Origin: Lophium mytilinum
Taxonomy: Eukaryota
DNA length: 64,000 nucleotides
Reading direction: 5' to 3'
Assembly: GCA_010093605.1 (NCBI GenBank)
Contig: MU004197.1
Location: 930,001-994,000 of the forward strand
Both the position numbers and the translations under genes were made by a program. Of the stretch, positions 33,803 to 52,133 are shown piece by piece. The notes below the pieces were generated by a model. It was not told the origin of the DNA. It did not search any database and saw only the letters and a program-made list of their open reading frames with translations. Within the stretch, counting starts at the first letter, position 1, and every line of letters starts with the position of its first letter.

Positions 33803-36210
33803 ATGGCGTCGCATAGTGCTCTCCTGAGCCCCGGTGACGCGTTGCCCATTAGACCTCATGCCAAAGGACTCCGCCGCCGCAAGACTAAGCACGCTTTCCA
33901 GGCCAAAACTTCAACCCAACAGCTGGAGAGAGCCAAGGACGACGACGAGTATGGCGTCGCCCTGCAGGTACGCTTTCTTCCCAAAATATTCCCTCCCCAT
34001 CAACCCAGTTCTGACGAAGTCGTGGATAGACTCTTTTCATAGGCCTGTCGGCAAACGACGGAGTAGGCGGGACTGTAGATGCCGGATTCGCATCCCATGA
34101 TGGCACATACAGTATCGATTTTGCTGTTCAAACACTAGGTGGAAAGGGTGGCTTCGGTGGTACTGACAGTGGGACGGATACGCCTGGACGCTCAGGCACA
34201 GACTCCCCCTCCGGCATACTTACACCATCGGGAATGCGGACGCCTCTCCTTCCCGAAGAACGAGCAGGAGTTCTTGCCGACTACTTTGTCGAAAAGATCC
34301 GGGAATACCAGCAGGACCATCTATACAAGTTCGTGGGGGCTGGATTGACCAAGAAGGTCGTTCAAATGAGTCCGAATCTGCCAGCACGACTTTGGTGGGA
34401 GCTGGATATTGTCCCGCTAATTTTCGAAACTGGACTCGAAGAACCTTTCCCTAAAGCAGCCCGACACGGTATCGCAGTTGACGAAGAGGCAGACTCGATG
34501 GCCAGAAAATGTCTAATGTACGGAATCCTACCCAATTGCCTATATTCAATTACTTACGATCTACAGGTTCTTCGGACCCAGCCAACAGCCTCGCGTGCAA
34601 GTAGGCTACCGTAACGAGGTCGAGGTCGATTCTGGAGGCCACGCCCAGATCACTTGTCTCGATCAGTACCCTGAGACAGTCGGCGACGCAACTTGGAAAG
34701 CGACCATGAAATACGTCCAGTCTCTGAAAGACAACAACGTGAGGATTGCGTTCTTCAACAGCACGCCGCAGGGTGGTGGGGTCGCATTAATGAGACATGC
34801 TCTCATTAGGCTTCTTCGTCTCGTGGGCGTCGACGCAGCTTGGTAAGTCCCAGCAAACCGTCTTTTCATGCATGTTGCTAACAGCGAAATAGGTACGTGC
34901 CGAAACCAAAGCCCGAGGTCTTCCGAATCACCAAGAACAACCACAACATCCTTCAAGGCGTTGCCGATCCTAATCTGCGGTTGACCGACTACCAAATGAA
35001 AGTACTAGACGATTGGTGCTTGCAAAACGCGGAGAGATTCTGGATCTCAGAAGGAGGCGCGCTGGCTCCTCGATCCCAAGGAGGTGCAGATGTTATCATC
35101 GTAGACGACCCCCAATTGCCAAGCTTGGTCCAGATCGCGAAGAAACTCGACCCAACACGACCCGTTATCTTTCGATCGCATATTCAAGTCCGCGCCGATC
35201 TTGCGGATCAACCCGGCACTCCCACGTCGGAAGTCTGGAACTGGGTATGGAAGAACGTTAAAGACGCCGATGTCTTCGTCAGCCACCCGGTCCGAGAGTT
35301 CATTCCTAGTATCGTCAACTTCGACAGGGTCGGCTATATGCCCGCCACCACCGACTGGCTTGATGGCTTGAACAAAGAGATGAGCGATTGGGACACCTCG
35401 TACTACCTGCACGAATTCAACTCCGAGTGCTTCCGCCAACGAATGGACCGGCTCGAGTTCCCAGCCCGCGACTACATCGTGCAGATCGCCCGCTTCGACC
35501 CGGCCAAAGGCATCCCCGACGTGCTCGAATCCTACGCTAAACTCCGCCGGGAGTACATGAGCGAGATGGACAAGGCCGACATCCCGCAGCTCGTCGTCGC
35601 GGGCCACGGCGCCATCGACGACCCGGACGCGACCCTAATCTTCGACCAAACCCTCAGCCTCCTCGAGACCAAGTACCCAGACATCCGCCACGACGTCGTC
35701 GTCATGCGCCTCGGCCCCACGGACCAGACCCTCAACGCCCTCATGTCCAACGCCAAAGTCGCGCTCCAGCTCTCCACGCGCGAGGGCTTCGAGGTCAAGG
35801 TCTCCGAGGCGCTGCACAAGGGCATCCCCGTCATCGCGACCCGCGCTGGCGGCATCCCGCTTCAAGTGGAGCATGAGAAGAGCGGGTACCTCGTCGAGCC
35901 CGGCGATAGCGATGCCGTCGCGAAGCATCTCTATCATCTGTTCACGGATGTCCCCGCGTACGATGATATGAGCGAGTACGCGGCGTTGCATGTCAGCGAC
36001 GAGGTCAGCACGGTGGGCAATGCGCTTGCGTGGCTGTATCTGGCGGACACGTTGGCGAAGGGAGAGAAGATCGAGCCGAAGAGTGCGTGGATCAATGACT
36101 TGGCGCGGGAGAAGGCGGGGTTGCCGTATACGAAGGGGGAGAGTAGGCTGCCGAGAGTGGAGGGGTTGGATCTGGAGACGCCGGTTGTGGCAAAGGAGCC
36201 GGAGGCTTAG
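33803..36210 (+). CDS. Trehalose synthase/phosphorylase (ccg-9-like, GT4 glycosyltransferase)
   Basis: IAFFNSTPQGGGVALMRHALIR, VFRITKNNHNILQG, IVQIARFDPAKGIPDV and ALQLSTREGFEVKVSEALHKG. Three introns. Confidence 0.93.
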
Positions 36211-37424
36211 TGAGTGACGAGGCGGATTTCGGGATGAGGTGTTGTGGTGGAAGAGGTTCTTAAGGGTGCATATGGGGAAAGGGGATTCATGATTATGACG
36301 GTGACTTTTCTACTCAAGACTAATTACAAATAAAGTCGGGCAAGAGACGGGATTGTACAGTACACAATATACTCATTTTGGGCTTTTGAAGCGTTAAAAA
36401 GTGTTTTCTTTTACTCATCGATGTACTGAGGTGTACTTATCCTGGTCGCATCGCGATCGGGACATAGAGAACTTCACACAATGTCAACAGGCCTGATAGA
36501 GATAGCTTGGACTTCGCTTGAATTACTCTGGATCGTTTACTACACCTCAACCGAGATGCTTCGAAGGGCGCCAAGGGGGCAGAAGTAGGGGAGGCCGAAG
36601 CTAGCCTGATTAATAGCGTGGTAAGCTTTACATCACATCTTAAGTAGGTATAGCATATTAAGGCGCCTCTAACGATAGTGAATGGTTGCTAATAGGATAT
36701 CTCAAGCGACGATTTGGATCAAGGTGAGTCTTATATTCGTTCTTTTTGCTCCAATGCTATAAAGCCTAGTAGACCTCCCATATACTCAAACAGTTCTCAG
36801 CGCGGCCGCGAATATTACCCGTACTCTAGTTCCACCACTCTATTGCGATTCAAATCTCTACAAATCTTTAGAAAGGTACAAAAAATAGCAAAAGCGACGT
36901 ATAAAGATAATGTATAACGAGACGACAAACATGGATGAGACACTACCACACTGCCAACGACGCGTAATGGAGGGCTTCTTCATGAAGGGCTCCTTCACAA
37001 AGGGGTCTGATTCGACCTTGACACCTTTCTCTCTGTGCATTTCCCAGAAATTGAAAACCTCCTTCCTCTTCACCATAGCCTACTCCGGTAAAGTATGGGC
37101 CATCATATATGCCGCATCCGGTGCATGTGCTCGAGCAAGCTCGAAGAGTGTTAACGCCGGGGGCCGATTGGAAGTTTCCGAGGTCAGCGCCTGCTGCATT
37201 GCTTGATCAAGACCGGTGGAGTAGTCTAGGCTGATGATAGGCTTCGCCTTTCTCGCCGTATTTCTTTTCGCTTGCTTCTTTGCAGATAGGCTTGCTTCAA
37301 TATCCGAGAAATCCGTGAACTTGGAGCTGAATAGTTCGCATGGGGGCTGGCCGTGGGCGAGGAAGTGTACTACTGCGCCTAGAGCCCATATATCGAACTC
37401 TTCTCTTGAGCGAAGCGGTTCTGG

Positions 37425-37573
37425 GCCCAGCGCTCTTTGGGGTAGGTGACAGCAAACTTGATCGTGTTGGAGGTCTGTCCCTCATCCAGCTTGGAGTTGT
37501 AGCGCTGGTTCGCCTCGATGCGGAGAACGTCGACGGGCAGGTAAGTGTCCTTGCCCTTGGTCATCTTGACAAG
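37425..37573 (-). other. Captured Argonaute fragment A (PAZ end/linker 2), 149 bp
   Basis: Encodes LVKMTKGKDTYLPVDVLRIEANQRYNSKLDEGQTSNTIKFAVTYPKERW. Inserted between the two prolines of the kinase Y(Q)P|PE motif. Confidence 0.88.
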
Positions 37574-37690
37574 GGGCTAGTACGTGTAGGTACCTGGGCC
37601 CCGCTCGTATTCGTCATTCTCGGTGGTTTGGAGGTGAGCGAGTCCGGAGTCGCCCAGGTTAAGATTAGGGTAACCGCCTTCCACGCTGCT

Positions 37691-40600
37691 CAGGGCTGCT
37701 ATCCAACCAACCAACCAATCCGAGTCGTTCAGATTGGTTGGATTGGCGTATTAGTCAGCGAGGGTCAATATTAGTTGGTTGGTTAGACCAATATTAGCCA
37801 ATATTAGCAATTAGCCAATTAGTATAAGGTTAGTATATAATAGTAATACTTAGCATGGTATTAAGTTTAAGTATTAATTTATCTACCTATTTCTAAACAG
37901 CCTACCTATTTTATAATAGCCTACCCGTTTTTAGCAGCCTACCTATTTTTAGTAGCCTACCTGTTTTTAGTAGCCTTAGTCCTTACTCTAACTTAATATA
38001 TTATTATACGTTTACTTTAATTACTATCCTCTAACTAATCCGCCGTCTAGTATATTAATAAGATTGTCTCTCTCCTATAAAGATAATAAGATAGTTACTC
38101 CTATAATATTAATATCTAGTACTAATCTATTTAGAGCCTATAATAGGCCTATTTAGTTAAAATTATATTTATTACTAGTACTTATAGCTAGAATAAATAG
38201 AAGGTTAAGAGCTATATAGGTAAGATAAGAGTATTTAGAAAGTCTTAATACCTAATACTTAATTAGATTAGTAACGCGGCGGTTATTAGTATACGCACCG
38301 CGGGCAATCTAGTAAGTATACTCGTCCTCTCTAACTTATAATAAAGCTATACTTATAGCTATAACTATAAAGAAGGTTATAAAGAAGTTATTCTTATTAA
38401 GAGCTAATACCTTTACTTACTATTGCGCCTCTACCTTACTAAGTTTAATAATATAGTATTTATATTTTAAATTCTATAGCCTCTATATATTCTTCTTTAC
38501 TTCCCTAATCTAATTAGCCTTACTAGCCTAATACTTCTCTATAAAGTCCTATTTATATGCTAGATATAGTACTATAGCTATAATATAGGTAGCCGTGCGG
38601 TTAGTAAGGTTATAATACTTATTAAGTTTTATCCAGGCAAGGTTAATGCTATATTAAAAGTGCTCCTCTAGGTAGTAAGTATATAGAACCTTAAACTTTT
38701 TAAGATAGAAGAGAAGATTCTTATATATAGGTAGAACCTTCTAAAGAGAGCCTTTCTTTTCTTAAGAGATTCTACCTTCTAGGCGCTTTATAGCTATCTT
38801 AAAGGGCTTTAGAAGCTGCAGATACTCTATAATTACTACCTAGTCCTTATCTATAAGGGTATTCTTTATAATAGCTAGCTACTTATAACTTCTAGTAGGC
38901 GTAGGTTAGGTGCTACTACAGGTCTACTTTATAATATAGGTATACTACTTAGCTACCTCCTCTTCTATAACTATATTAAGATATAGCTATATCTAAATAC
39001 TGCGTTCTATTATAGACTTAATGCTATTCTATTGCGTTGCTACTAGCTTAATAGAATAATATACCTTAGTCTTATTTACTTCCTTCTAAAGCTAAATAAG
39101 ATATTATATGCGCAGCTCTAAATTAAATAGCTATATTATAATAAACTATAGCTTTATAATTAGCCCTAGCTTTTACTAGACTTATAGCTTTAATACTATA
39201 TCCTTATCTAGAAGGTTGTATTTATAGTCCTATAAAAACTCCCCTTTCTAATTACTAGTAAAGAGCGCTCTAATAATAAGGTTAATAACGTAGCTAAGGT
39301 AGCGTAGTTGCTATTTATATTTATTAACTCTAAAGTCTTCTATTTCTTATAGAAATATATTAAGGTTATTAGCGTTATTAGCTATAATATAGCCTACCTA
39401 CTTACTATTAGCTGCATGTACGCGTAATAAAATAAGAAGGCTAAGTAATAAAATAAGAAGGCTAAGTAATAAAATAGGAAGGCTATTATATACTACCTAT
39501 TTATAGCAAGACTAATATATACTACCTATTATAGTAAGACTAATATATATAACCTATTTATAGTAAGACTATTATATACTACCTATTCTATATATACTAT
39601 CTATACTATATATACTATCTATTCTATATATACTATCTATTCTATATATACTACCTATTTATAAATAGGTAGTATATAGCAGCCTTACTATAAACGGGTT
39701 ATATATAATAGTCTTTCTATTATATTACTTAGCCCTTCTATTTTATTATATTAACGCAGCTAGCAGTAAGCTTACCTACTCTTATCTAATTTTAAACTAT
39801 TTAAATATCTATACTACTACCTCTTTAATATAGGTTCTACGGTGCCGGTCTATTATTTCTAGTAGGGCTAGTATAATAGAGTAGTATTAATAGACAGCGT
39901 CTATAAAATAGTAATTAATTCCTAGTAGCGCTTTATAATTGCGTGCAGTCTAAAGATCTATAGAGAAGTAAAGCTTTCTAGGCGCTACTAAAAGGAGTTA
40001 TTTAATAGTTTTCTAATAGCGGTAATACTTAGATAGTATATAGGTTTATAGTATTATATAGTATAGTAAGTAATTACTAATAGTAATAGCCTAATTAAGA
40101 TAGGTAAGAAGAGCACGGAGGTGCGGGCTTTTAATAGTAATAAGAGGAATCTTAGTATATATAACCCATTAAATTAGCAGCTAGAAAAAGTGCGTAGGCG
40201 TAAAGGAATAAATAATAGTATTAATTTGCGCTTACTTATAAGAAATACTAGTAGAGAGCTAGAGCTACTTAATAATACTAAGCTATTTTAGCTTCTTAGT
40301 GGCGTATTTACTAATAAAGATCTAATAACTTTTAGACAGGTACTTAGCGTAGTTATTAGTTTCTAGGGCAGTATAGATATAGCCCTCTTATGCTTTTAAT
40401 ATATAGTATAGCTTATAATACTAGAATCTTTTACCTATCTCCTTCTTTTATATATTATAGCTATGCTTCTATACCTCTCCTATTCTATTATACTGCGAGC
40501 GCGTAGGTTTATAATAGCTAAGAAGACGGCCCTAGTTAATATTATTATAGGCGTTTAAGTATTGCGGCTGCTCGGCTACCTTATATTATTACTACTTGCG

Positions 40601-41197
40601 GAATACTTATATAAGTATTAGATTATCTTTGCTAGGGTTATATAATAATATAACTATAGATGTAACTATAGATGCAACTATAGATATAATAGAAGTAGAA
40701 GTAGTAGAAGTAGTAGAAGTGGCAGAAGTATAAGAGGTACATTAATTACATTACAGCGGTATAGTAGATGTAATAGTTATAATAGATATAATAGAGTTAA
40801 TAATAAGATTATAATATATTATATACAGCGGCATTAAGGCGTGCAGCATTAAGGTAGCTATCTTAAAAATTCATTATAGGAGGCTATTAGCGCAGGCTAA
40901 GCTAAAAGGGAAGTATATATAAAATAGGAAGGCTATAGTTTATAAAAAGGCTGCAGGTTTATAGTAAGACTATAAGATTATAGCAAGACTATAGTATTAA
41001 AGTTATAGGTAGCCCGCGCTAAGGCGGTATATAGTTACGTGGTAATATATTAGCGTATTAGCTAATACTCTAACTAATTAGAGCCCTCTATATTAGTTGG
41101 TTGGCCTATTTTCTAAAGAGAGATTGGTTAGATTGGTTGCTTATTAATTAACCAATATTGGCCAATCGCCAATATAGTTGGTTGGATAGCAGCCCTG
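37691..41197 (-). mobile_element. hAT-superfamily DNA transposon, heavily RIP-mutated, 3507 bp
   Basis: Perfect 21-bp TIRs CAGGGCTGCTATCCAACCAAC and an 8-bp TSD ACGCTGCT (37683-37690 and 41198-41205). The interior is very AT- and TpA-rich with no long ORFs. A minus-strand relic IKY*VLRLSKYSYLTYIALNLLFILAIS near 38170-38270 fits the hAT dimerisation domain. Confidence 0.92.
39421..39680. repeat. Short tandem repeats inside the transposon
   Basis: AATAAAATAAGAAGGCTAAGT about 2.5 times, followed by several TATACTAC/TCTATT-type units. Confidence 0.7.
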
Positions 41198-41315
41198 ACG
41201 CTGCTTGGAACAACAAGAAGGCTTCCGGGCTCTATTTCGTCGTGGATGATGGAGTGTATGTCATGAAGCCACGTGAGGGCCTCTGTCTCTTGAAGGAAAA
41301 GTGCCATATTAGGGC

Positions 41316-41467
41316 CTGGGAGACAACACCAAAGCGGCAGTCACAGGACTTCTTGATACGACGGTACACGTCGATATCCTTGTCGTTGACGATGAACACA
41401 AGAAGCTGCGGGCGAGAGGTGAACTTGTTCCCATTCGCCTGCCAAACGGAGTTGATTATCTCACCAC
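41316..41467 (-). other. Captured Argonaute fragment B (MID domain), 152 bp
   Basis: Encodes GEIINSVWQANGNKFTSRPQLLVFIVNDKDIDVYRRIKKSCDCRFGVVSQ. Inserted between kinase codons ITE and ALIWH. Confidence 0.9.
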
Positions 41468-42293
41468 CTCGGTGATTTGCATTCCGTTTTTGGCCCATAG
41501 CCTGTGAAACATGCTAAGATCGCCACCTTCACAATATTCGAACGCCGACCTTACAGTGGATGGTCCTGGGTTAGGAAGTGTGCCAAGAAACTCCAGAATC
41601 GTCGAGGAGCCTTGCGCTGCTGATATCATCTTGATTTCTTGTATAGCTTCTTCGTCGTAACCACGTTTCATTTTCTTCATGATAATTCCCGGTGCGACTC
41701 CTTGTGCTTGATGTGGCAGATCAGTCCCTACCCCCCGGTATCCAAGGGATGAGACGCTCAGTTCGTATCAAATTCGTCCAGTGAAAAGACGCTCCTATCA
41801 TTGCTCAAGGGCCAACGCAAGAAAGCGAAGAGAGTAAATCGAGAAGCGTTCGGAAATGAGAACATATTGCCCATATTCTCAATCCTGAAAGGAGGTTGGG
41901 GCTTCGTGAGGTGCAAGAGGTAGGTGTCTTGGGACGAGTGATACAAGGTCTTGGTTCGTACAAACTCCGATAGAGGATATTCGGTACTACATGCTGTCGT
42001 ACGCCCGTACACGATGAGTGTGTGGGAGATAGTGATGTTGTTGTGCGAGAAGTTGTGGTGTGGTGTTGTTATGGAGGTCTTGGCGAGTAAGCTATGTGTA
42101 GTTACCAGAACGCGAAGCGGCTTTTTGAGTACCATTCTCACCACGATGTGGCAGTATGCTAGTGGTTATGATGGTACGAAGCGTGGCAGCAGTTCGCTGC
42201 TCCACGCCTAGCTCGTTCGCGCCTCCTGCTTCGCTAGGGAGCTCGTGGTGTGCGATGAGGTCGTCTGTGAGTTGGAGAGAAGAATAATTGGCA

Positions 42294-42440
42294 GATCATC
42301 GAAGTTGTCGCGAACTTAGGATTCACTCGGGCAAGGGCAGTACCAGTAGCCCTAGATGTAGAACTGCCTAGCTTGGCGTTGATCTTCATGCAGACATTCG
42401 ATGCATACTGGGAGTCCAACTTGACGCACTGGGCCGAGTG
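42294..42440 (-). other. Captured Argonaute fragment C (MID to PIWI start), about 145-150 bp
   Basis: Encodes SAQCVKLDSQYASNVCMKINAKLGSSTSRATGTALARVNPKFATTSMI, including the Argonaute hallmark QYxxNVxMKINAKLG. It lies about 70 bp downstream of the intact kinase stop. Ends are approximate. Confidence 0.9.
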
Positions 42441-42509
42441 TGCAAAGTGATTGGAGAACTCCAAAAGAGTCGGCTATAATTCTCAAAAGTGTTGCCAGAC
42501 GCTCTCCCT

Positions 42510-43715
42510 CTATGCGAAGGGATCATCTTCCGTTTTGGCGTCCGGAAACAACTCCCATAGGTTGAATTCGTGATGACCGGGTACTTTTCTCTTGATTGCC
42601 CAGTCTTCAAGGGGCTTTGCCGCCATTCTAGCTTTAGCAGGCGCGAACGGCCTGACAAGCTGCAAGAGCTGAGACGCGGTGGGCCTGTCTCGGGCATTCA
42701 AGTGACATGCTGATTGTATGGCGCGACAAAGAGCGTCGCAGTGCAGGCGGCCTGGCACACCGCAAATATGTTTGGCCTTCCTCGGTGCCAGATTCTTCCT
42801 CTCCTTCTTTTCTTCAATCGGCATGTCGGTGTCGAGACGGCCCAAAGAGCAAGGGGATTCCCCATGGGCAAGGTAGTGGATAACGCTACCCACAGCCCAA
42901 ACGTCTGATGCTTTCGTTGACCGAAATGGCTCGGGAGGCTGGTAGCTCCAAGTGCCTGCTCCATACTCTTCTTTATCTCGCTCTTCGCTCTGGAACTCAG
43001 CAAGCCCAAAGTCTGCATATTTTATCTCTGGATAGCCACCCGTTGTGGTTGAAGCGATGAGGATGTTGGCAGGTTTGATGTCTCGATGGACTATGTTACA
43101 CTCTTCGTGGAGGTGGACCAAACCCTCGGCTAGTTGCTTGAATATGTGCCACAAGAGAGCGTCCGTCAGAGGCTTCTTGTGTTCTTGCCACGCATTGTAG
43201 TACTCGCTGAGATCACTCTCGCGGCAGTACTCGAACACAGGCCGTAGTTTGAGTGGCTCTGGGGGGTTTGGAAGGTTGCCCAGGTAGCTGAGGATGCGTG
43301 GGTGGCCTCCCGCGGCCTTGAACATTTCTATCTCATGTTTGGTCTCTTCGTCCACATCATGGAACATTTGTTTCATGATATAGTACCGGTGTGATTTCTT
43401 GTGTTGGATGAGGTTTATCGCGCCTTGCCCTCCGCGAGTGATCTCTCGGTATCCCCAATTTGTAGTGAGCGTGTCCTCTTTGAAAGTTACATTCTCGTAC
43501 GAGGGAACAAGCCCGGTCTCGGCGTTGTCGATTGAACTGTTGGGAGTGTCTTTAATGTCACTATTCTTGTCGAGAGCGTCCTCAAGGCTGGACACTTCAT
43601 CGGAAGAGGTATCTATGTTGGTCCATTCGTCTGAAATGTCCTCGATCCAAGCACATTGCGTCGAAGTTTCGTTAACGATACTCCACTGCTCGAGAGTGTC
43701 GTTGAATGTAGTCAT
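42510..43715 (-). CDS. Intronless Ser/Thr protein kinase, divergent and loosely NIMA/Nek-like, 401 aa
   Basis: RGGQG loop, YIMK, alphaC E, FEYC, LLWHIFKQLAEGLVHLH, HRDIKPAN, ADFG, YQPPE, SDVWAVG and RPTA. Acidic N-terminal extension. Confidence 0.9.
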   Translation of the reverse strand: MTTFNDTLEQWSIVNETSTQCAWIEDISDEWTNIDTSSDEVSSLEDALDKNSDIKDTPNSSIDNAETGLVPSYENVTFKEDTLTTNWGYREITRGGQGAINLIQHKKSHRYYIMKQMFHDVDEETKHEIEMFKAAGGHPRILSYLGNLPNPPEPLKLRPVFEYCRESDLSEYYNAWQEHKKPLTDALLWHIFKQLAEGLVHLHEECNIVHRDIKPANILIASTTTGGYPEIKYADFGLAEFQSEERDKEEYGAGTWSYQPPEPFRSTKASDVWAVGSVIHYLAHGESPCSLGRLDTDMPIEEKKERKNLAPRKAKHICGVPGRLHCDALCRAIQSACHLNARDRPTASQLLQLVRPFAPAKARMAAKPLEDWAIKRKVPGHHEFNLWELFPDAKTEDDPFA

Positions 43716-46700
43716 TGCGTCGGTGGCCGTGGTTTCAGTGCTGCTTGCTTGTCAAGTGTTGGTATTAAAGGTGGGCTTGAAGTTGTTAGAAGTGTGTATG
43801 AAGAAGGCAGACGCAGACGCAACGTAAGTTATTAAGTGCAAATTCTACGGCCACAATTGTGCATAAGTGGCGTGGTTCTGAGGTCTGCACAATGTGGTAG
43901 CGATATACTGATCCATGGGTGGTTGGTTGTTCCAGAACGAAAGCCGTCACGTGTCCATTACCAAAGCCAGAGCGAGGGCCTAATAAGACCACGAACACGA
44001 CAATAATCCATCTCTTTCCGAAGACCAGCACGCAGAGGAGCATCTGCTTATGTACAGCACTGGGTCATAGGCTTGAGCGCATCGATATCTCAATGCTAGG
44101 GCTCTAACCCTGCCTGTTTGACACCACCGTGAGGAATGGCCCGGCTAGCAGGTGGACCGTCAGTCAAAAGGTACCCTGTTTGCCGCTGTGTCGATCTTTA
44201 CATCGTATTCGGAGGTTTAACGCCCCTAGAGGCGCCCCAAGCAGTGGCAAGCAATATGGAGGTTTAGAGGAAGAGTGTTGAAATAGCGGACATGATTCAA
44301 ACCACAGGCGAAAGAGTTCTGATGTACAGTGACAGGCCACAAGTCTGGGCACATTAGCTTGACACCGCATGGAGTTCCCCCACAGGATTTCGAAGATCCA
44401 AGGGTGATGTCGAGGTTCAAGCAGTGTAGATTGGACTACCTCTGGACTAATTGGCTGCTCAACAGCCAGGGTATCCCCGACAGTGGTGTCGAGTGAGCAA
44501 GTTGGAGCCAAGCTGTAATGAGTATATGTGCCCAGACTTGTGGCTTAGTACTGTAGCGTGTTGTGACCAAGAGGAGAGATAAAGAGGATGAACAACAGTT
44601 TTTATTAAGACCTAAAAGAGAGGAGTATGCCATTCGACCAGCAAATTAGACATGAGGTTGGTATCCAATAAAATCCGCACCATTTCGTTATTCTTGGCCA
44701 TAGCGCGCGACCACTACCCACTGCGTTTCTAGAGTGCACTTAAATGGTCTTAGCTCTGCTAAAATCTAGCGATCGATGCGTTATGATCATCAAGCCGTAA
44801 AGTCGTCCTTTGATAAAAGGCGTTGATGTCGCTGAGGGCTATAACAACAGAAATAGTGTTTGGAAGGTAGGTTTGTCGTGAACAGTCTGAGCTGTGCGCA
44901 CTGGTTGTCGGTGTGCGGCGAGTTTGGGATATGAGGTTCGACCATGCAGACGTCGGAAAGTATGTGTGACGAGAGCAAGCAAAGGTGATTTGGGCTTCCA
45001 TTTAATGCGGTCAGATAGTAGTAGATTTGTCGTTCCCGTCCACATGGTCGTTGAGGGTGTTCGAGAATGCGCTACGGCCACGAGGTATCATTTGGAGCAG
45101 ATGCCTGACCCTCTAAAGTCGACCAGTAATTTAAGGATATCCCGAAGTGCGGGGCCCTCAAACAACCACAGACATTGCTTAGGGTTATTTCGCATGCCGT
45201 GGACATGCGTATCCGACTTGCACAACTCGATCTGCAACTTCGTGCCGACCATATGCAGGGCAAGCGTCGATGCCATGAACATGGTATATGCACCCACAAA
45301 CTGCATACACTTCAACGATACGAATACACATGAATAATAGACTCCGAGTATCTGCGATGAAGCTAACAGAAGTAGGATGATGGCGGAAAGGAGCAAAATG
45401 GAATGGTGAGTTCTACTCCCTCGGATATGAGAGAAGGGCAACGAAGAAGGAGGAACAGCGGGGCCTAAAAACGGATAAAGGAAAACGCAGAACAGCTTGA
45501 GATTACAAAGAATAGAGACAGGACGAAGCATGAGGACTACGAAGGAAGGGGGCCAAGTAAGGCAACAGTGTAGTTGATATACGCTTGTGCACGGCTGCCG
45601 AGACCGAACGTTGGACAAGGAAGGGCCGGAGTGCGCGAATGATCAGTCAGAGGCGGATAGCGTCATGACTGAGGCTTGCACCAAGTGTGGGTAAGGCGCA
45701 GATGGCATTCCGGCTTCCGCAAGTTGAGCGAGGTGAACGAACATTGAGGAACCGGGTAACGCAAAAGTGACTCTGACAGGCCAGCCACGCGTTTTCCCAT
45801 TCAAGGCTTTGGGTAAGGCGCAGTACCATGCTAGGAGTAACTACCAATCCAAACATGGAAGATCTCGGGCGGGAATAGACGAGTGACAGGATATGGACTG
45901 CGTTCGGTGATGGGAGCTAGACTGGGGGCCGCATCGGTGAGGATTCGCAGCAAGCCCACCCTGATGGCGGTGCTTGCGAAGCCACACCTGGACTGCGATT
46001 CATACGGTCAGCAGACGATGATGGTTTGGTTAACGTTCGCAGGCAGGGGGCTCGCCATGTCTTGGCAGCGGTTGAGAAAGCGATTGGACACCGGGGAGAT
46101 TCCTGACGCCAGAAGGGAGTCAGCGAGTCGGCCACATGGTAAACATAGATACGAACATGTGGCTAAGTTGCCGGCTTTAGAACAGAAACGTTAGTCGGGG
46201 TAATGTTGGGTCCGCGGATGGTAGCCGGCATTCTAGCTCTACGGCGCGGTCAAGGCAAAAAGCTGGGGTAGCACAGGAAGAACTCGATAGGATCGAAGCC
46301 AGCATTCCCGTGGGGGGACACAGAGAGGCGGCCAGGGAACGATGATGCCACAACGGTATACGCACTTGCATCCGTACACGTCTATGATGGTGGAGGTGGT
46401 GAAAACCATCAGCCCTAGACAAGCGTACTTCGTAACACGCCCCTGGTTTCTCGGCAGTCGGCAGGCACACCGCTGTTCGACTTGACCCTTCTCACGAACC
46501 AACCTCGACGGCATGGCCGCCCTTCACGCCGGACACGCGGTTGCATGGCGGTGACCTCTTGCCACGCGATGAGATGCCAACCTGCATTCAGCCCTATGTC
46601 AGCCCTATTCGTCATCGTCTGAGGGCCCCGATTCCCCCCGTGTGGCTTAAACCACGCACCCCCATTGTTCTTAGTTCCCCTCTACCCGTCGTGCTGTCTT

Positions 46701-48557
46701 TTGATCTCCAATGGTCGATGTCTGAGATCCGCGTTGCGGTGATCTACGATCATGTCCTTAACGTCAAGCAATTCTCTCGTCGATGAACCCCTCAAGAGTG
46801 GCAAAGCACGTATATACGAACAGCTCACGAGTATCAATGTTGGTTCTAGCCGTTCACTGTCCGAGAGTTTCCTACTACCCTATCAATGTGTCTATTCACA
46901 TCTCCCTCTCTTACCGTTTCCCTGCAGACTGATACCGGTTAATAAGATGGCCGGAGTTTATTAATAGCTAGGTGTTTCCTGCGTTCTCGTTGGGCCTTCT
47001 CAAATTAGACCACGTTAGAATTCTAAATCTTGCGAGGCATTCTTTGAGACGCCTGCCAACACCCTTGATTATTGGTAGGTCAATGACCGGACCATTTCGT
47101 ATGCAAGCATCCGCCGCTTATGCTTTTGAATAGCCATTACAGTATCGACTCCCCTTTTCACTTGGCAGCACATGGGTGTTGTTCGACATCTATCATAACA
47201 GCAAATATCGCCTCGCACCCCCTACGAGTCATGCGCATGCACGTTTCGCCGCTCTGAAAGTTTGCCGGACGCGATGCCAGCTCTTCACAAGCAGCTTGTT
47301 ACTCGATTCTCTTGAATGACCGTCTTTTGAAGACTTTTCCTTCATGCCGTTCTACCCCCCGAGAATACCGTCTAGTATCTCGACCCCTGGAAATGGACTG
47401 TAGCTTCAGAAGGACGCAGGGATGAGTCGCCCCTAGGATAGCTTCAATATTCTCGCCCTTTCTAAGAAGGACTTTCCATATTTCAAATGCTCCGCCCTCT
47501 TCTCGCATGTCCAAGGCGTCATCCCCTGTAAGGCTCAGCCAGCCTCGGGATCCTAGCGTTTTAGCCATTGAAACGAATGCAGGCTGGCACTTACGTATGA
47601 ATCTCGGGCCGTTGAGCCGAGCACCAAGGAAGGATACATCGAACATAGGAAAAGGGAGGATTTATGAGATCGCCATCTTGGCGACATGGCTGCTATATGG
47701 TCACGTGACTGGTATCTGGCAACATCTGAAGTGTGGAACCCCAGCGGCACGGTGTGAGATTCAATCCAAGTATATTCTCCTTCTCCTAAGTCTTAGAGCG
47801 CATTGAAGAGCTACGTTTCTTCGTCTCTCAATCATAAAAGCCTGGTGTGTTTCAATGTCCCAGAATTCTCGACTGGAAGACGCCCTCCTACACCATATTA
47901 TCATCTACTCTATCATACATTTATTGTTATCTTAAACACTTAATACATAGCGCAGAATCCCAACAGTGTAGTGCGACTCACGAGGTTGAAAGGAGATGGT
48001 GTTGCTCACCTCCACAGCAAAGACGCCCCGGGAGAACAGCGAAAGAACTACTTAGCCGCCAGTGAGACAAAAGACACGATCCCCGCTTCCAGATACTCTT
48101 GGCTACATGTTCTCTCTTCCGGGGACTGTTTTTGGCTGCTATTGATCGTGGTTCATACTAAGGATATCGATGCGGTGACGACAGACTCGACTGTGAAGAC
48201 CGTGCACCTCACCTCTTCGGAGCGATTAGAACTCCCAGCCTCCTCAATTCTCACTTCACCTTGCTCTTCCGCCAGATTCCACGATCCTATTGTTCCTATT
48301 GTTCTCTGTTTCCGGCTAGCGTCTTCGCCATTGAGATTTCTACTGCTCATAAAAGGCCCATCGACAAGATTCTCTTCTCTCCAAGTTTCCTTCATCCTAC
48401 ATCCTCAATATCCTCTTCACAGAATCCATATCCTGTCACCATCTCCATCGATCAAGCATCCAACTCGGCCCGAGCTACTTCCTATCTACAATCTTCTCTT
48501 CATCACTCAGCAACCATCTCCCAATCCCAAACCATCACTTCACTGTTCATCTCCAAC

Positions 48558-49261
48558 ATGTCCGACACCAACGCAAACACCAAGGTTCGTCATCGCCTAC
48601 CCGCACTCAACCAATCAGCCTGCTAATCCTTCCTAGTTCACCTGGGCCGGCGAGAACGAGCGCAAGCTCATGATGCTCACCCTCGGCCGCCAGCTCGGCG
48701 CCGAAGACTACGAGAAGATCGCAGCCTGCTTCCCTGGTACGCTTTCACCCCTCCGCTCACAGTCTCCCTCACACTAATCCCACCTCAGAGGTCACTCTCG
48801 TCGCGGTCAAGATCCGGACCTCCCGCCTCCGCGTCGAGCGCACCAACCTCTTCAAGAAGCTCGGCCTGGGCGAGCCCGACGCCGGTGCTGCTGGCAAGGG
48901 CAGGAAGGTCGCCACCAAGTCGGCCAAGGGCGCCAAAGCTGCTGCTCCCGTCGACGATCCCGTCGCTGAGAAGCCGAAGGTTGCCAAAGCTACCACTCCC
49001 GTCGCTAAGAAGCCGAAGACCGCCAAAGCTGCTGCTACCGTCGCTGAGAAGCCGAAGGCCGCCACACCACGCAAGCGCAAGGCCAGCACCGAGGAGGACC
49101 CTGAGCTCGAAAACATCAACGTCACTCTGAAGAAGGGAAAGACCGTTCATATCAGCGAGGATTCGGAGGAGGAAGACAAGACCGTTCATATCAGCGAGGA
49201 GCAGGAGGACAAGGAAGAGGCCGTACTTATCAAGGCGGAGCCAAAGGACGACGATGAGTAG
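48558..49261 (+). CDS. Small Myb/SANT-like protein with Lys/Ala/Pro-rich and acidic tail, 199 aa, 3 exons
   Basis: Exons 48558-48584, 48637-48736 and 48789-49261, with GT-AG introns and CTAAT branch sites, splice in frame. N-terminus is MSDTNANTKFTWAGENERKLMMLTLGRQLGAEDYEKIAACFPEVTLVAVKIRTSRLR. Strong C/G third-position codon bias. Confidence 0.75.
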
Positions 49262-49619
49262 TTGGATTTGAGAGTGTTAGTCTTTAGGTTCGGTTTGGCA
49301 TATGCATATCAGGATCACCTGCCAGCGATTTTCCATAGTCTCAAAAGTTGCGCTGGACGCTGTGAGCTGCTATTATACCTGGCAGATAGCTGCACAATGA
49401 AGTCTGAATAACAGACTGTTTACTTCAATGATTCTTACTTGCCGTGATCTGAGCGTAAGAGACTCCAGTGAAGTTCAGATTAGCATCATCATGTTGATAG
49501 TTCTGGTCTTGCGAGGCGTTGCTGGGGTTGGCTTGGCAAGCTCGTAGACCATTCAAAAGGACTCACTTCTCTTTCCAATTACTACGAAGCTTCCTATATA
49601 GTGCCAAGGTAGCATACAG

Positions 49620-51900
49620 CTAGACTTAAAGCTTAGGCGCACGTAGATGCCACTGCTATAGTTCCATTCTTGCTCGTTCGACGCCACTGTACGGAGTCCT
49701 CTCGCTACTGGGTGGCTATTTGGTCAAAATGATAGCCAATCTATACCGCGCCAACAGTGACATTCATCAAGGACATGAAATCTCTAAGCTTGGCCACAAA
49801 CTCGTTCTTACTACCCATAGGGCTACGCTTTTGCTTCCTTGAAGCCACTGTACGAAGTAGCTCAGCCCATTGGTGGCCGGTTAGTTAAGAGGTAGCCCAG
49901 ATTACAACCCATCAACCTTGACATCCTATACGGACATTGGTTCCTAATGTTTTGGGCCCTGAATCGTATATTTTAAGGCTAGGCCTATACTTTTGCCGGT
50001 TCCACACCGCTGTCAGGAGTTGCTCAACTCGCCGGTAGCTAGTTAATTAATAAGTAGACTAGATTACGACCCAGCAGCCTTGACATCCTACACAGGCGCC
50101 AAAGTCTATTATTTTGGGCCCTGTATCGTATACTTTAAGGCCAGTCCGCTACTTTTGCCGGTTCGATACCGCTGTAAGGAGTTGCTTAGCTCGCTGGTGG
50201 CTAGTCGGTCAAGAGGTAGTCTAGATTACAGCCCATCAGCCTTAACATCCTACACGGACGTGAAAACGTATTACCTTAGGTCTAACTCGTATATCATAAG
50301 GCTACGATCTCGCTCTTATTAGTTTGATACCCCTATAAGGAGTACCTTAGCCAATCGATGAACAGTCCGTTAAAAGGTAGTCCAATTGACACAGTCTTGA
50401 TCCCGATATCCTAACCAAACATAAAAGATGCGAATGTAGATAGTGGTATGGATATAGTAACGCTAGGCCTTTATTCTTTCTCTCTTAACACTACTTTAAC
50501 ACTACTATAGGGGGTAGCCTAATGAGGTAGTATGCCCTGGTTAAGAGGCACCCTAGTTTATACTGCAGTAACCTTGATATACCCCTAGAGGACGTGAAAG
50601 CTATAGGCTTTAGGCCTAAATTAGATATAGCAACGCTTAGGTTTGGTTCCTACTCCTTAAATACTGCTGTAAGGAGTAGCCTAACTAGCTAAAGACCGGC
50701 CAGTCAAAATGTAGCTCATTTCATACTACAGGGACGACAATATCCTTTAAGAACATAAAGATGCAAGCTTGGACAAGGCTTCAGATATCACAGCCCTAGA
50801 GTTTCCTTTTTTCTCGCTCGACACCACCGTGTAGGGTAGCTCAGCCAGCTAACCGCCGGTCGGTTAAAAGGTAACTTAATATATACCTCGTTAGCCTTGG
50901 CATCTACTAAGAATATAAAAGCTACAAGCTTAGGGACTAAGTTAGATATGGCAGCGCTAGTAACTTACTATTGCTCGCCCGATACTACCGTGAGGAGTAG
51001 CTCAACTAGAAAGTAGCCGGCTGGCCAATAGGTGGTCTATCTTCCCACGTGTTGACCTTAGCATTATGCTGCAGTAGCTATTACTATAACCACCCAGATC
51101 TAGCACTGCTTGAGAGCCCCTCTAGAAGCTGAACACCACTGTCAGGAGTACCTCCGCCATCAAATAGCCGGCACGTCAAAACGTAGTTTACTATTCGCTG
51201 TATGGCCTTGACATTGGGTTGGAGTGGCTCCAGCACTAAGCCACAACTGTGGGCACACGGACATCACTGCTTGAATACCGCTTTTGCAAGCTGGACGCCA
51301 CTGTCAGGGGCAGCCCCTTTGCGAAGATACCTCTCTATCAATAGGAAGCTCATTTCGTAGTGTCTAAAACTTGACAAGAGGCCTACATTGTCCTCACCGC
51401 ACAGAGGCACCCCTTGCAGTGGCAATCGAGTGTGTACAAAGGTATGCCTTGTTACTGTACAGCCACACGGATGTTAGCATTGCTCGAGTGCTGCTCTTGA
51501 AGCTGCTTACCACTGTCCGGAGAAGCCTGGCCAGCAAGTAGCCATATAGTCAAAAGGTGGTCTAACATCTACTGCGTGAGCCTTGACGTTACCCTAAAGC
51601 AGCTATAAGATTAGCTATACGGATGTTAGCACTGCGCAAGTGACGCTTTGAAAGCTGCTTACCACTGTAAGGAGTAGCTCTGCTAGTCGGTAGCTAAGTG
51701 GCCAAAAGACAATCTAATATCTACTGCTAGATCCTTGACGTTGCGCTGGAGTAGCTACAACTCCAGCCACACGGATGCTGGCAGGCTTGAGTGCTACTTT
51801 GCAAGCGATACAACACTGTCAGGAGTAGCCTAACTAGCAGGTACCCAGTCAGGTAAAAGGCAGTCTAATGTATACTGTGTACAGCTTGACGTCGCACCTA
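49620..51900. repeat. Degenerate tandem array of 14 units, mostly 151-162 bp
   Basis: The anchor (a)ccactgt(a/c)aggagtagc recurs at 49687, 49848, 50010, 50172, 50333, 50505, 50667, 50827, 50988, 51139, 51301, 51513, 51665 and 51816. Secondary motifs tcaaaaggtagtct and gccttgacat also recur. Confidence 0.85.
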
Positions 51901-52133
51901 GAACCGTGAAGTCCCCCGGGGTCCCATCAAACAGGGGCAAACGAGTGTGCACAAGACTTCTTGATGATGTATGACCATCCTAATGGCCTTCAATTTCAAC
52001 TGATCTACCTATTCAGGTCCCAACCAGCCTGGTATCGAACAGCGCCATGGCCACCACTCTGTCCCAACGCCAGGAAATGCCTATATGACTTGCCATCAAA
52101 GATCTCGACGAATCTTCCGCTGCTATGAATCTT

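Follow-up and report, generated by a model that had tools for sequence, protein, structure and literature searches.

Three Argonaute gene fragments at a tandem kinase locus of Lophium mytilinum: repair by-product or silencing device?

Why should a pair of fungal protein kinase genes carry three short and separate pieces of an Argonaute gene, and do the pieces have a function there? The question is raised by a stretch of 64,000 nt from Lophium mytilinum (GenBank assembly GCA_010093605.1, contig MU004197.1, positions 930,001 to 994,000 of the forward strand), which is called the window here; all coordinates are positions within it. Two kinase genes, K1 and K2, lie in tandem on its minus strand, K2 downstream of K1. 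Argonaute fragments A and B are found within K2 and fragment C in the K1-K2 spacer. A preliminary description of this DNA had proposed that the fragments form a cassette that would "silence the silencer," i.e., that small RNAs made from them would act against the Argonaute of the host. We concluded that the Argonaute pieces at the kinase locus are real and somewhat odd, that they most probably arose as a repair by-product of a known kind, here in an unusual triple form, and that an anti-silencing function is unsupported by anything found at the locus.

The Argonaute fragments and their donor

The open reading frame around piece B found eight proteins at E ≤ 0.01 among 24 candidates in a word-based protein search, and Argonaute Pfam domains were present in 8/8. 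When the 910-aa Argonaute P0001 was compared with the whole window by tblastn, exactly three strong matches were obtained, all on the minus strand (E = 2e-23 to 2e-25); the fourth-best match among the 14 listed had E = 0.42. Piece A matched at 37576-37424 (P0001 aa 347-397, 49/51 residues identical), piece B at 41471-41310 (aa 524-577, 48/54) and piece C at 42440-42291 (aa 578-627, 47/50). The closest donor at the protein level is P0132, a 939-aa Piwi protein of L. mytilinum that belongs to the same 90% cluster as P0001. Over the same three minus-strand intervals, tblastn with P0132 gave 50/51 identical residues for A (aa 376-426, E = 7e-26), 49/54 for B (aa 553-606, E = 1e-25) and 47/50 for C (aa 607-656, E = 3e-23). 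The pieces agree with P0132 at both in-piece positions that distinguish it from P0001, and the donor therefore belongs to the local lineage. The P0132 gene sits on a 2.85-Mb contig, a different one from the 1.6-Mb contig of the window's own proteins. Judged from the protein record, an intact, full-length protein of the donor type is encoded elsewhere in the genome.

Pfam profiles alone were weak on the pieces: the matches to PAZ (E = 0.0015) and Piwi (E = 0.016 and 0.019) all fell below the curated cut-offs. They cover positions 83-122 of 123 in the PAZ model (A) and positions 2-42 (B) and 43-61 (C) in the Piwi model. P0001 itself matched the solved structures of plant AGO10 (296 bits) and human AGO2 (291 bits), both over the full length, and the MID-PIWI lobe of QDE-2 with 163 bits over aa 541-858; these scores do not settle its clade, for which the preliminary description had favored SMS-2 over QDE-2.

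The three inserts are nearly equal in size. Fragment A (37425-37573) is 149 nt long, or 153 nt counting junction microhomology, and corresponds to P0132 aa 376-426 at the end of PAZ and in L2. Fragment B (41316-41467) is 152 nt long and corresponds to aa 554-604 (end of MID and start of PIWI), and fragment C (42291-42440), at 150 nt, corresponds to aa 607-656 (start of PIWI). No internal stop is found in any of them. Along the minus strand the pieces run C, B, A, which is the reverse of their order in the donor, and they have the same sense as both kinases. B extends in the donor to one base beyond codon 604, and C begins at codon 607 or 608; the gap between them is 0-8 nt, depending on how microhomology is counted. 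The locus is not an Argonaute gene, intact or decayed: colinear N, PAZ, MID and PIWI regions were not found, and its Argonaute content consists of three pieces of 50-54 aa out of 939 aa, in reversed order and with kinase sequence between them.

The preliminary description, made from the letters and their open reading frames, was accurate on most of these points. The three stop-free, kinase-sense Argonaute pieces that it reported on the minus strand are those detected by tblastn, and they do match an Argonaute, at 47/50 to 50/51 identical residues to P0132 (B, 49/54). Its coordinates for A and B are the exact insert boundaries and those for C needed a small refinement, to 42291-42440; the reversed order was also recovered by tblastn. 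It had argued for three separate insertions from one donor and against a decayed Argonaute gene, which is upheld by the exact resumption of kinase sequence at A and B (see below), the scrambled order and the intact donor-type protein elsewhere. The donor gene that it proposed to look for was located in part, as P0132 on another contig at the protein level.

Insert junctions and the decayed kinase gene

K1 is an intact kinase gene on the minus strand (42510-43715; coding part 43715-42513, stop down to 42510) that encodes 401 aa, does not require an intron and matches Pfam Pkinase (E = 8.6e-35). Its product is 100% identical to P0009, a database protein. Among named relatives, P0010 of Mytilinidion resinicola comes closest (76% identity over 97% of the query; 401 vs 402 aa), and from that alignment and the two lengths neither K1 nor P0010 contains an insert. 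Further relatives in the protein search were only ~30% identical. The K1 family is thus very narrow, with the M. resinicola protein as its single relative at 76%. The first ~77 residues of K1 form an acidic, low-complexity stretch.

Read on the minus strand, the 152 nt of piece B stand between the K2 codons ...ACC GAG and GCC CTA ATA TGG..., and across the insert K2 reads ITE/ALIWH vs LTD/ALLWH in K1 (the slash marks the insertion point). The 149 nt of piece A stand between ...TAC ACG TAC TAG CC and C CCA GAA CCG..., where K2 reads GTYTY-stop-P/PEPLRS vs GTWSYQP/PEPFRS in K1. Zero kinase residues have been lost or doubled at the two junctions, and no target duplication is seen in the sequence at A or B. 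The insert end and the flank share just 1-3 nt (CC for A, AG for B and CA for C). Piece C starts 69 nt past the K1 stop codon; the acceptor site was judged for A and B only, there being no uninterrupted copy for C. The marks of a templated or captured insertion at a double-strand break can thus be seen here: a donor that is intact elsewhere (at the protein level only), an acceptor preserved without target-site duplication and with short microhomology for A and B, and a size of tens to a few hundred nt for A, B and C.

The lengths of A and B are both 3n+2, which breaks the kinase frame; in addition, a TAG immediately precedes A, and the kinase frame runs into a TAA 9 nt inside B. The pieces therefore cannot be read through as part of K2. 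The earlier statement that two pieces interrupt a kinase paralogue whose codons resume exactly on the far side is correct in that no residue is lost, but the reading frame itself does not survive the inserts.

Other interpretations of the inserts were considered and rejected. An intron acceptor before A was discarded, since the "tactag" found there is kinase sequence (GTYTY plus stop). The inserts were not accepted as introns either: B does start with GT and end with AG, and splicing it out would bring the kinase codons back together, but it has a poor donor site, no GT-AG solution exists for A, and K2 carries other breaks too. A tandem array or circular intermediate as the source of the C, B, A order would need more events than three insertions.

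K2 is a decayed pseudogene. It was found by tblastn only as pieces, 37-43% identical to K1 and all on the minus strand. Its N-terminal part (41468-41787, homologous to K1 aa 78-187) was matched at 41787-41689 in frame -2 and at 41683-41462 in frame -1 with 42-43% identity, and the 1-nt frameshift inside it separates the stretches that correspond to K1 aa 110 and 113. On the other side of B, the middle part (41198-41315) begins with ALIWH, has a second 1-nt frameshift in the T run at 41297-41300 and carries HDE for HRD (open reading frame 41128-41340); its final 8 nt (41198-41205) are copy 1 of the target-site duplication of a transposon. Beyond the transposon, the part at 37574-37690 is homologous to K1 aa ~224-266 and carries DSG for DFG, its first 8 nt (37683-37690) being copy 2 of the duplication; in tblastn, K1 aa 218-273 matched 37702-37541. 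After A follows the C-terminal part (36999-37424, homologous to K1 aa ~267-400), where the tblastn match over 37424-36999 is 38% identical. One premature TAG (37577-37579) replaces a Gln codon of K1 and another (37080-37082) a Trp codon, with K1 homology running ~29 codons beyond the latter. An active kinase has an intact frame with HRD and DFG, and K2 has lost both catalytic motifs along with the frame. Its lesions are two 1-nt frameshifts, two premature TAGs, two inserts and one transposon.

Once freed of both inserts and the transposon, K2 shows 38% identity (114/301) in an alignment with K1 aa 113-401. What had been described as a paralogue is therefore kinase-derived, but it is a pseudogene only 38% identical to the intact kinase. 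When the C-terminal piece of K2 was compared with longer proteins by a word-based search, no match at E ≤ 0.001 was obtained among 424 candidates, and an exhaustive protein search with the same piece gave four matches, namely the gene model P0129 (98%), K1 (41%) and two others, both weak. Neither search turned up a closer intact relative of the K2 type.

The degenerate DNA transposon inside K2 (37691-41197, 3507 nt, strand unassigned) has perfect 21-nt terminal inverted repeats (TIRs) that start with CAGGG and are 100% complementary, and an 8-bp target-site duplication (TSD), AGCAGCGT, on both sides. The terminal-repeat motif matches the window at these two places only, with 0 expected by chance. 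The element shows the structural pattern of the hAT superfamily, an 8-bp TSD with short TIRs, which we take to be the marks of a hAT-type transposon; its translation contains 94 stop codons. Its GC content of 0.30, TpA/ApT of 1.70 and (CpA+TpG)/(ApC+GpT) of 0.34 resemble what repeat-induced point mutation (RIP) leaves behind, and it is the sole AT-rich block across the window; the K2 parts flanking it have normal RIP indices. B is 118 nt and A 117 nt away from the terminal repeats, on the outer side and with the target-duplication copy included; C is ~1.1 kb outside. Transposon-mediated capture of the fragments was rejected, since all three pieces are outside the element termini, within colinear kinase sequence (C in the spacer). 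The transposon target site is midway between B and A, with 110 nt of kinase sequence on one side (41206-41315) and 109 nt on the other (37574-37682). Given a landing in this 227-nt interval, the chance of a midway placement is ~1-3%, but the observation was made post hoc. The symmetry may be due to chance, or to a shared ruler such as nucleosome phasing beside the element.

A public gene model, P0129 (37080-37564, minus strand, 143 aa), has been annotated across this part of the locus. It starts at an ATG (37564) inside piece A and ends at the premature TAG of K2, and its predicted 53-nt intron (37457-37405) lies across the boundary between Argonaute and kinase sequence; these exons and the intron could be reproduced exactly from the window. 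P0129 thus consists of 36 Argonaute-derived residues fused to a kinase C-lobe remnant, under the public name of a protein-kinase-domain protein. If the pieces are repair filler, the locus shows how such DNA can seed annotated chimeric "genes" such as this one.

The surroundings of the locus are ordinary housekeeping-type genes, not a repeat island. A Pfam scan of 97 open frames between 24 and 56 kb identified a WD40 gene (29.6-30.8 kb), a trehalose-synthase-like glycosyltransferase (34.5-36.2 kb), UFD1 (52.1-53.5 kb) and a GYF-domain protein (53.5-55 kb) as neighbors. In the ~8 kb upstream of K1 (~43800-52000), no open frame of at least 90 aa had a Pfam match at E ≤ 0.001. Self-BLASTN of 36300-44500 against the window gave a weak inverted similarity between 44401-44487 and 51509-51595 (87 nt, 70% identity, E = 2e-4); besides this match and the transposon ends, it found no further copy of any part of the locus. 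An Rfam scan of 36000-44500 found no Rfam family. Of three sequencing runs compared, two from one sample, presumably of DNA, contained 0.95 and 0.94 of the sampled words and may be the source of the window itself; the third, under a different organism label and perhaps of RNA, contained 0.13.

Origin of the fragments and possible function

We consider it fairly probable that the pieces are non-functional templated or captured insertions of break repair, all from one episode. Each ~150-nt piece would be a copy of part of one transcribed Argonaute gene on another contig, and would have entered a clean double-strand break through end joining or through templated insertion primed by microhomology; two of the breaks would have occurred inside K2 and the third in the spacer just past the intact K1. 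All three pieces most likely arrived in a single repair episode with the kinase locus and the Argonaute gene in contact, since one donor was used three times. We infer the breaks, the end joining or templated synthesis, the single episode and the absence of function alike.

Insertions of this kind have been described in experimental systems. In yeast, 0-20 nt of microhomology are seen at the junctions of distant templated insertions; 5-7% of the insertions are complex, and insertions of this type rise in Dna2, Rad27 and RPA mutants (PMC11724301). In human cells, the insertions have a median length of 120 bp and come from loci under active transcription; the donor has to be in contact with the acceptor, and nearly 10% contain more than a single donor piece (bioRxiv 10.1101/2022.09.30.509517).

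Compared with P0132, the pieces have six internal residue differences in ~152 codons (A 1, B 3 and C 2) and three more in junction codons that belong to the flanks. The single-base changes that may underlie the six differences are four transitions and two transversions. RIP as the cause of fragment divergence was rejected on account of this mixture and of the normal RIP indices of the flanks. In a neutral simulation with 10-15 random substitutions (5000 trials), 155 codons stayed stop-free in 57-70% of trials; the outcome being common under simulated neutrality, the open frames of the pieces carry no weight. No sign of selection or function was found in the pieces. We speculate that the sizes of 149-152 nt and the near-abutting positions of B and C in the donor point to a ruler, which might be nucleosome-sized or Okazaki-sized DNA or the processivity of a polymerase.

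Several considerations weigh against break repair as the source. Three captures of one gene at three sites over ~1.3 kb (transposon left out) are unusual, and the cited experiments show several pieces at one break, not one piece each at several (PMC11724301; bioRxiv 10.1101/2022.09.30.509517). The common orientation (chance ~1 in 8) and the exactly reversed order (~1 in 6) are left unexplained, neither of them being significant alone. That a silencing gene served as donor is a coincidence that the neutral model must accept, and the model does not predict a transposon target midway between B and A (110/109 nt).

Replicative template switching, i.e., microhomology-mediated break-induced replication or fork stalling and template switching (MMBIR/FoSTeS), is a close but rather unlikely alternative, in which one nascent strand at the kinase region would have jumped three times to the Argonaute gene and back, without any break being filled by captured free fragments. 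Such a strand could explain the use of a single donor three times in a short tract, the short junction microhomologies and the common orientation of all three pieces, and the similar tract lengths could reflect polymerase processivity. However, every return to the kinase template would have had to hit precisely the following base, with nothing lost or duplicated, which is not the usual product of template switching; it is for this reason that we rank it below break repair. The donor blocks would also have been used in descending order.

It is very improbable that the pieces were kept for building a chimeric gene, for example P0129 with its Argonaute-derived start and kinase C-lobe tail. This model is part of the public annotation, and the window encodes it exactly once a 53-nt GT-AG intron is spliced out. 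Nevertheless, the intron donor GTTTGC is weak and no clear branch site is seen (as judged against the splice consensus), the product would have no catalytic part of either parent, and the model ends at a premature stop with kinase homology continuing past it. P0129 is a predicted model.

We regard the silencing-suppressor cassette of the preliminary description as a similarly long shot. It supposes that the locus is unpaired in some crosses and that small RNAs from the Argonaute pieces knock down the donor, weaken meiotic silencing and protect or favor K1. In its favor, the donor is truly an Argonaute, many exact 21-25-mers are probably shared with it (146/155 residues are identical), and C, at 69 nt past the K1 stop, could ride on the K1 transcript. 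The meiotic-silencing background to the proposal is sound. Sk-2 and Sk-3 reportedly suppress MSUD (meiotic silencing by unpaired DNA), as stated in the title of a paper cited in PMC6505168. Another paper states that silencing by genes left unpaired extends to paired copies at other places in the genome, and gives 1.3 kb as the shortest unpaired segment reported as detected by MSUD (PMC5555490, citing Lee et al. 2004). The homology blocks here are only ~150 nt each and ~450 nt in total, although a larger unpaired island could carry them. Two of the three pieces reside in a dead gene beside a RIP-like transposon, and no inverted copy or hairpin arrangement of any piece was found in the window by tblastn and self-BLASTN. 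The open frames, stop-free as chance would leave them, give no signal, the inserts break the reading frame, and the flanks (WD40, trehalose-synthase-like transferase, UFD1 and GYF-domain protein) are ordinary genes. A narrow literature search, judged from the listing of 12 of its 27 papers, found no report of MSUD in Dothideomycetes. The dead host gene, broken frames, chance openness, missing hairpin copy, ordinary neighbors and short blocks leave the proposed anti-silencing function without support. Slimmer still is the chance that the pieces are a working small-RNA source which, on transcription of the locus or when it is unpaired in meiosis, would tune down the donor Argonaute, as a suppressor sheltering K1 or as an autoregulatory RNA interference loop.

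Lastly, a wrong joining of Argonaute-gene reads into the kinase locus during assembly is scarcely credible: a mis-join would be identical to P0132, from which the pieces have six internal residue differences, and there are three separate in-register inserts with microhomology junctions, one of these junctions being spanned by the public gene model P0129.

Comparison with known systems

If break repair is the true source, the locus records in a natural genome what is known mainly from assays in yeast and human cells, with three equal-sized copies of one transcribed gene in three nearby breaks and the acceptor kept to the base. If the silencing function were true, the locus would offer, for the first time in a fungus, the genomic signature of an evolved anti-silencing decoy, and it would be a naturally evolved "silence the silencer" device outside Neurospora; nothing found supports that. 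The locus is like the Neurospora phenomenon in having extra silencing-family sequence at an ectopic place. It differs in having ~150-nt pieces, not a whole gene or a deletion allele, and in belonging to a different fungal class from that in which MSUD suppression is known.

Pack-MULEs, Helitrons and hAT transduplication are cases of gene fragments captured by transposons. The locus resembles them in its short, sense-oriented host fragments beside a DNA transposon, and is unlike them in that all three fragments are outside the terminal repeats. Insertions of organelle DNA, such as nuclear mitochondrial DNA segments (NUMTs), are non-functional filler at repaired breaks that decays neutrally. The Argonaute pieces are alike as non-functional repair filler, with the difference that the donor here is a single-copy nuclear gene used three times.

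The closest likeness is to break-repair templated insertions, which share with this locus ~100-200-nt copies from elsewhere, a donor left intact and the lack of target duplication. Junction microhomology is 0-3 nt at the locus and 0-20 nt in the literature, where transcribed donors are also favored and multi-piece events are known. Unlike in the break-repair assays, there are three acceptor sites here with one piece of the same donor each, the pieces are fixed in a natural genome, and their sizes agree within 3 nt.

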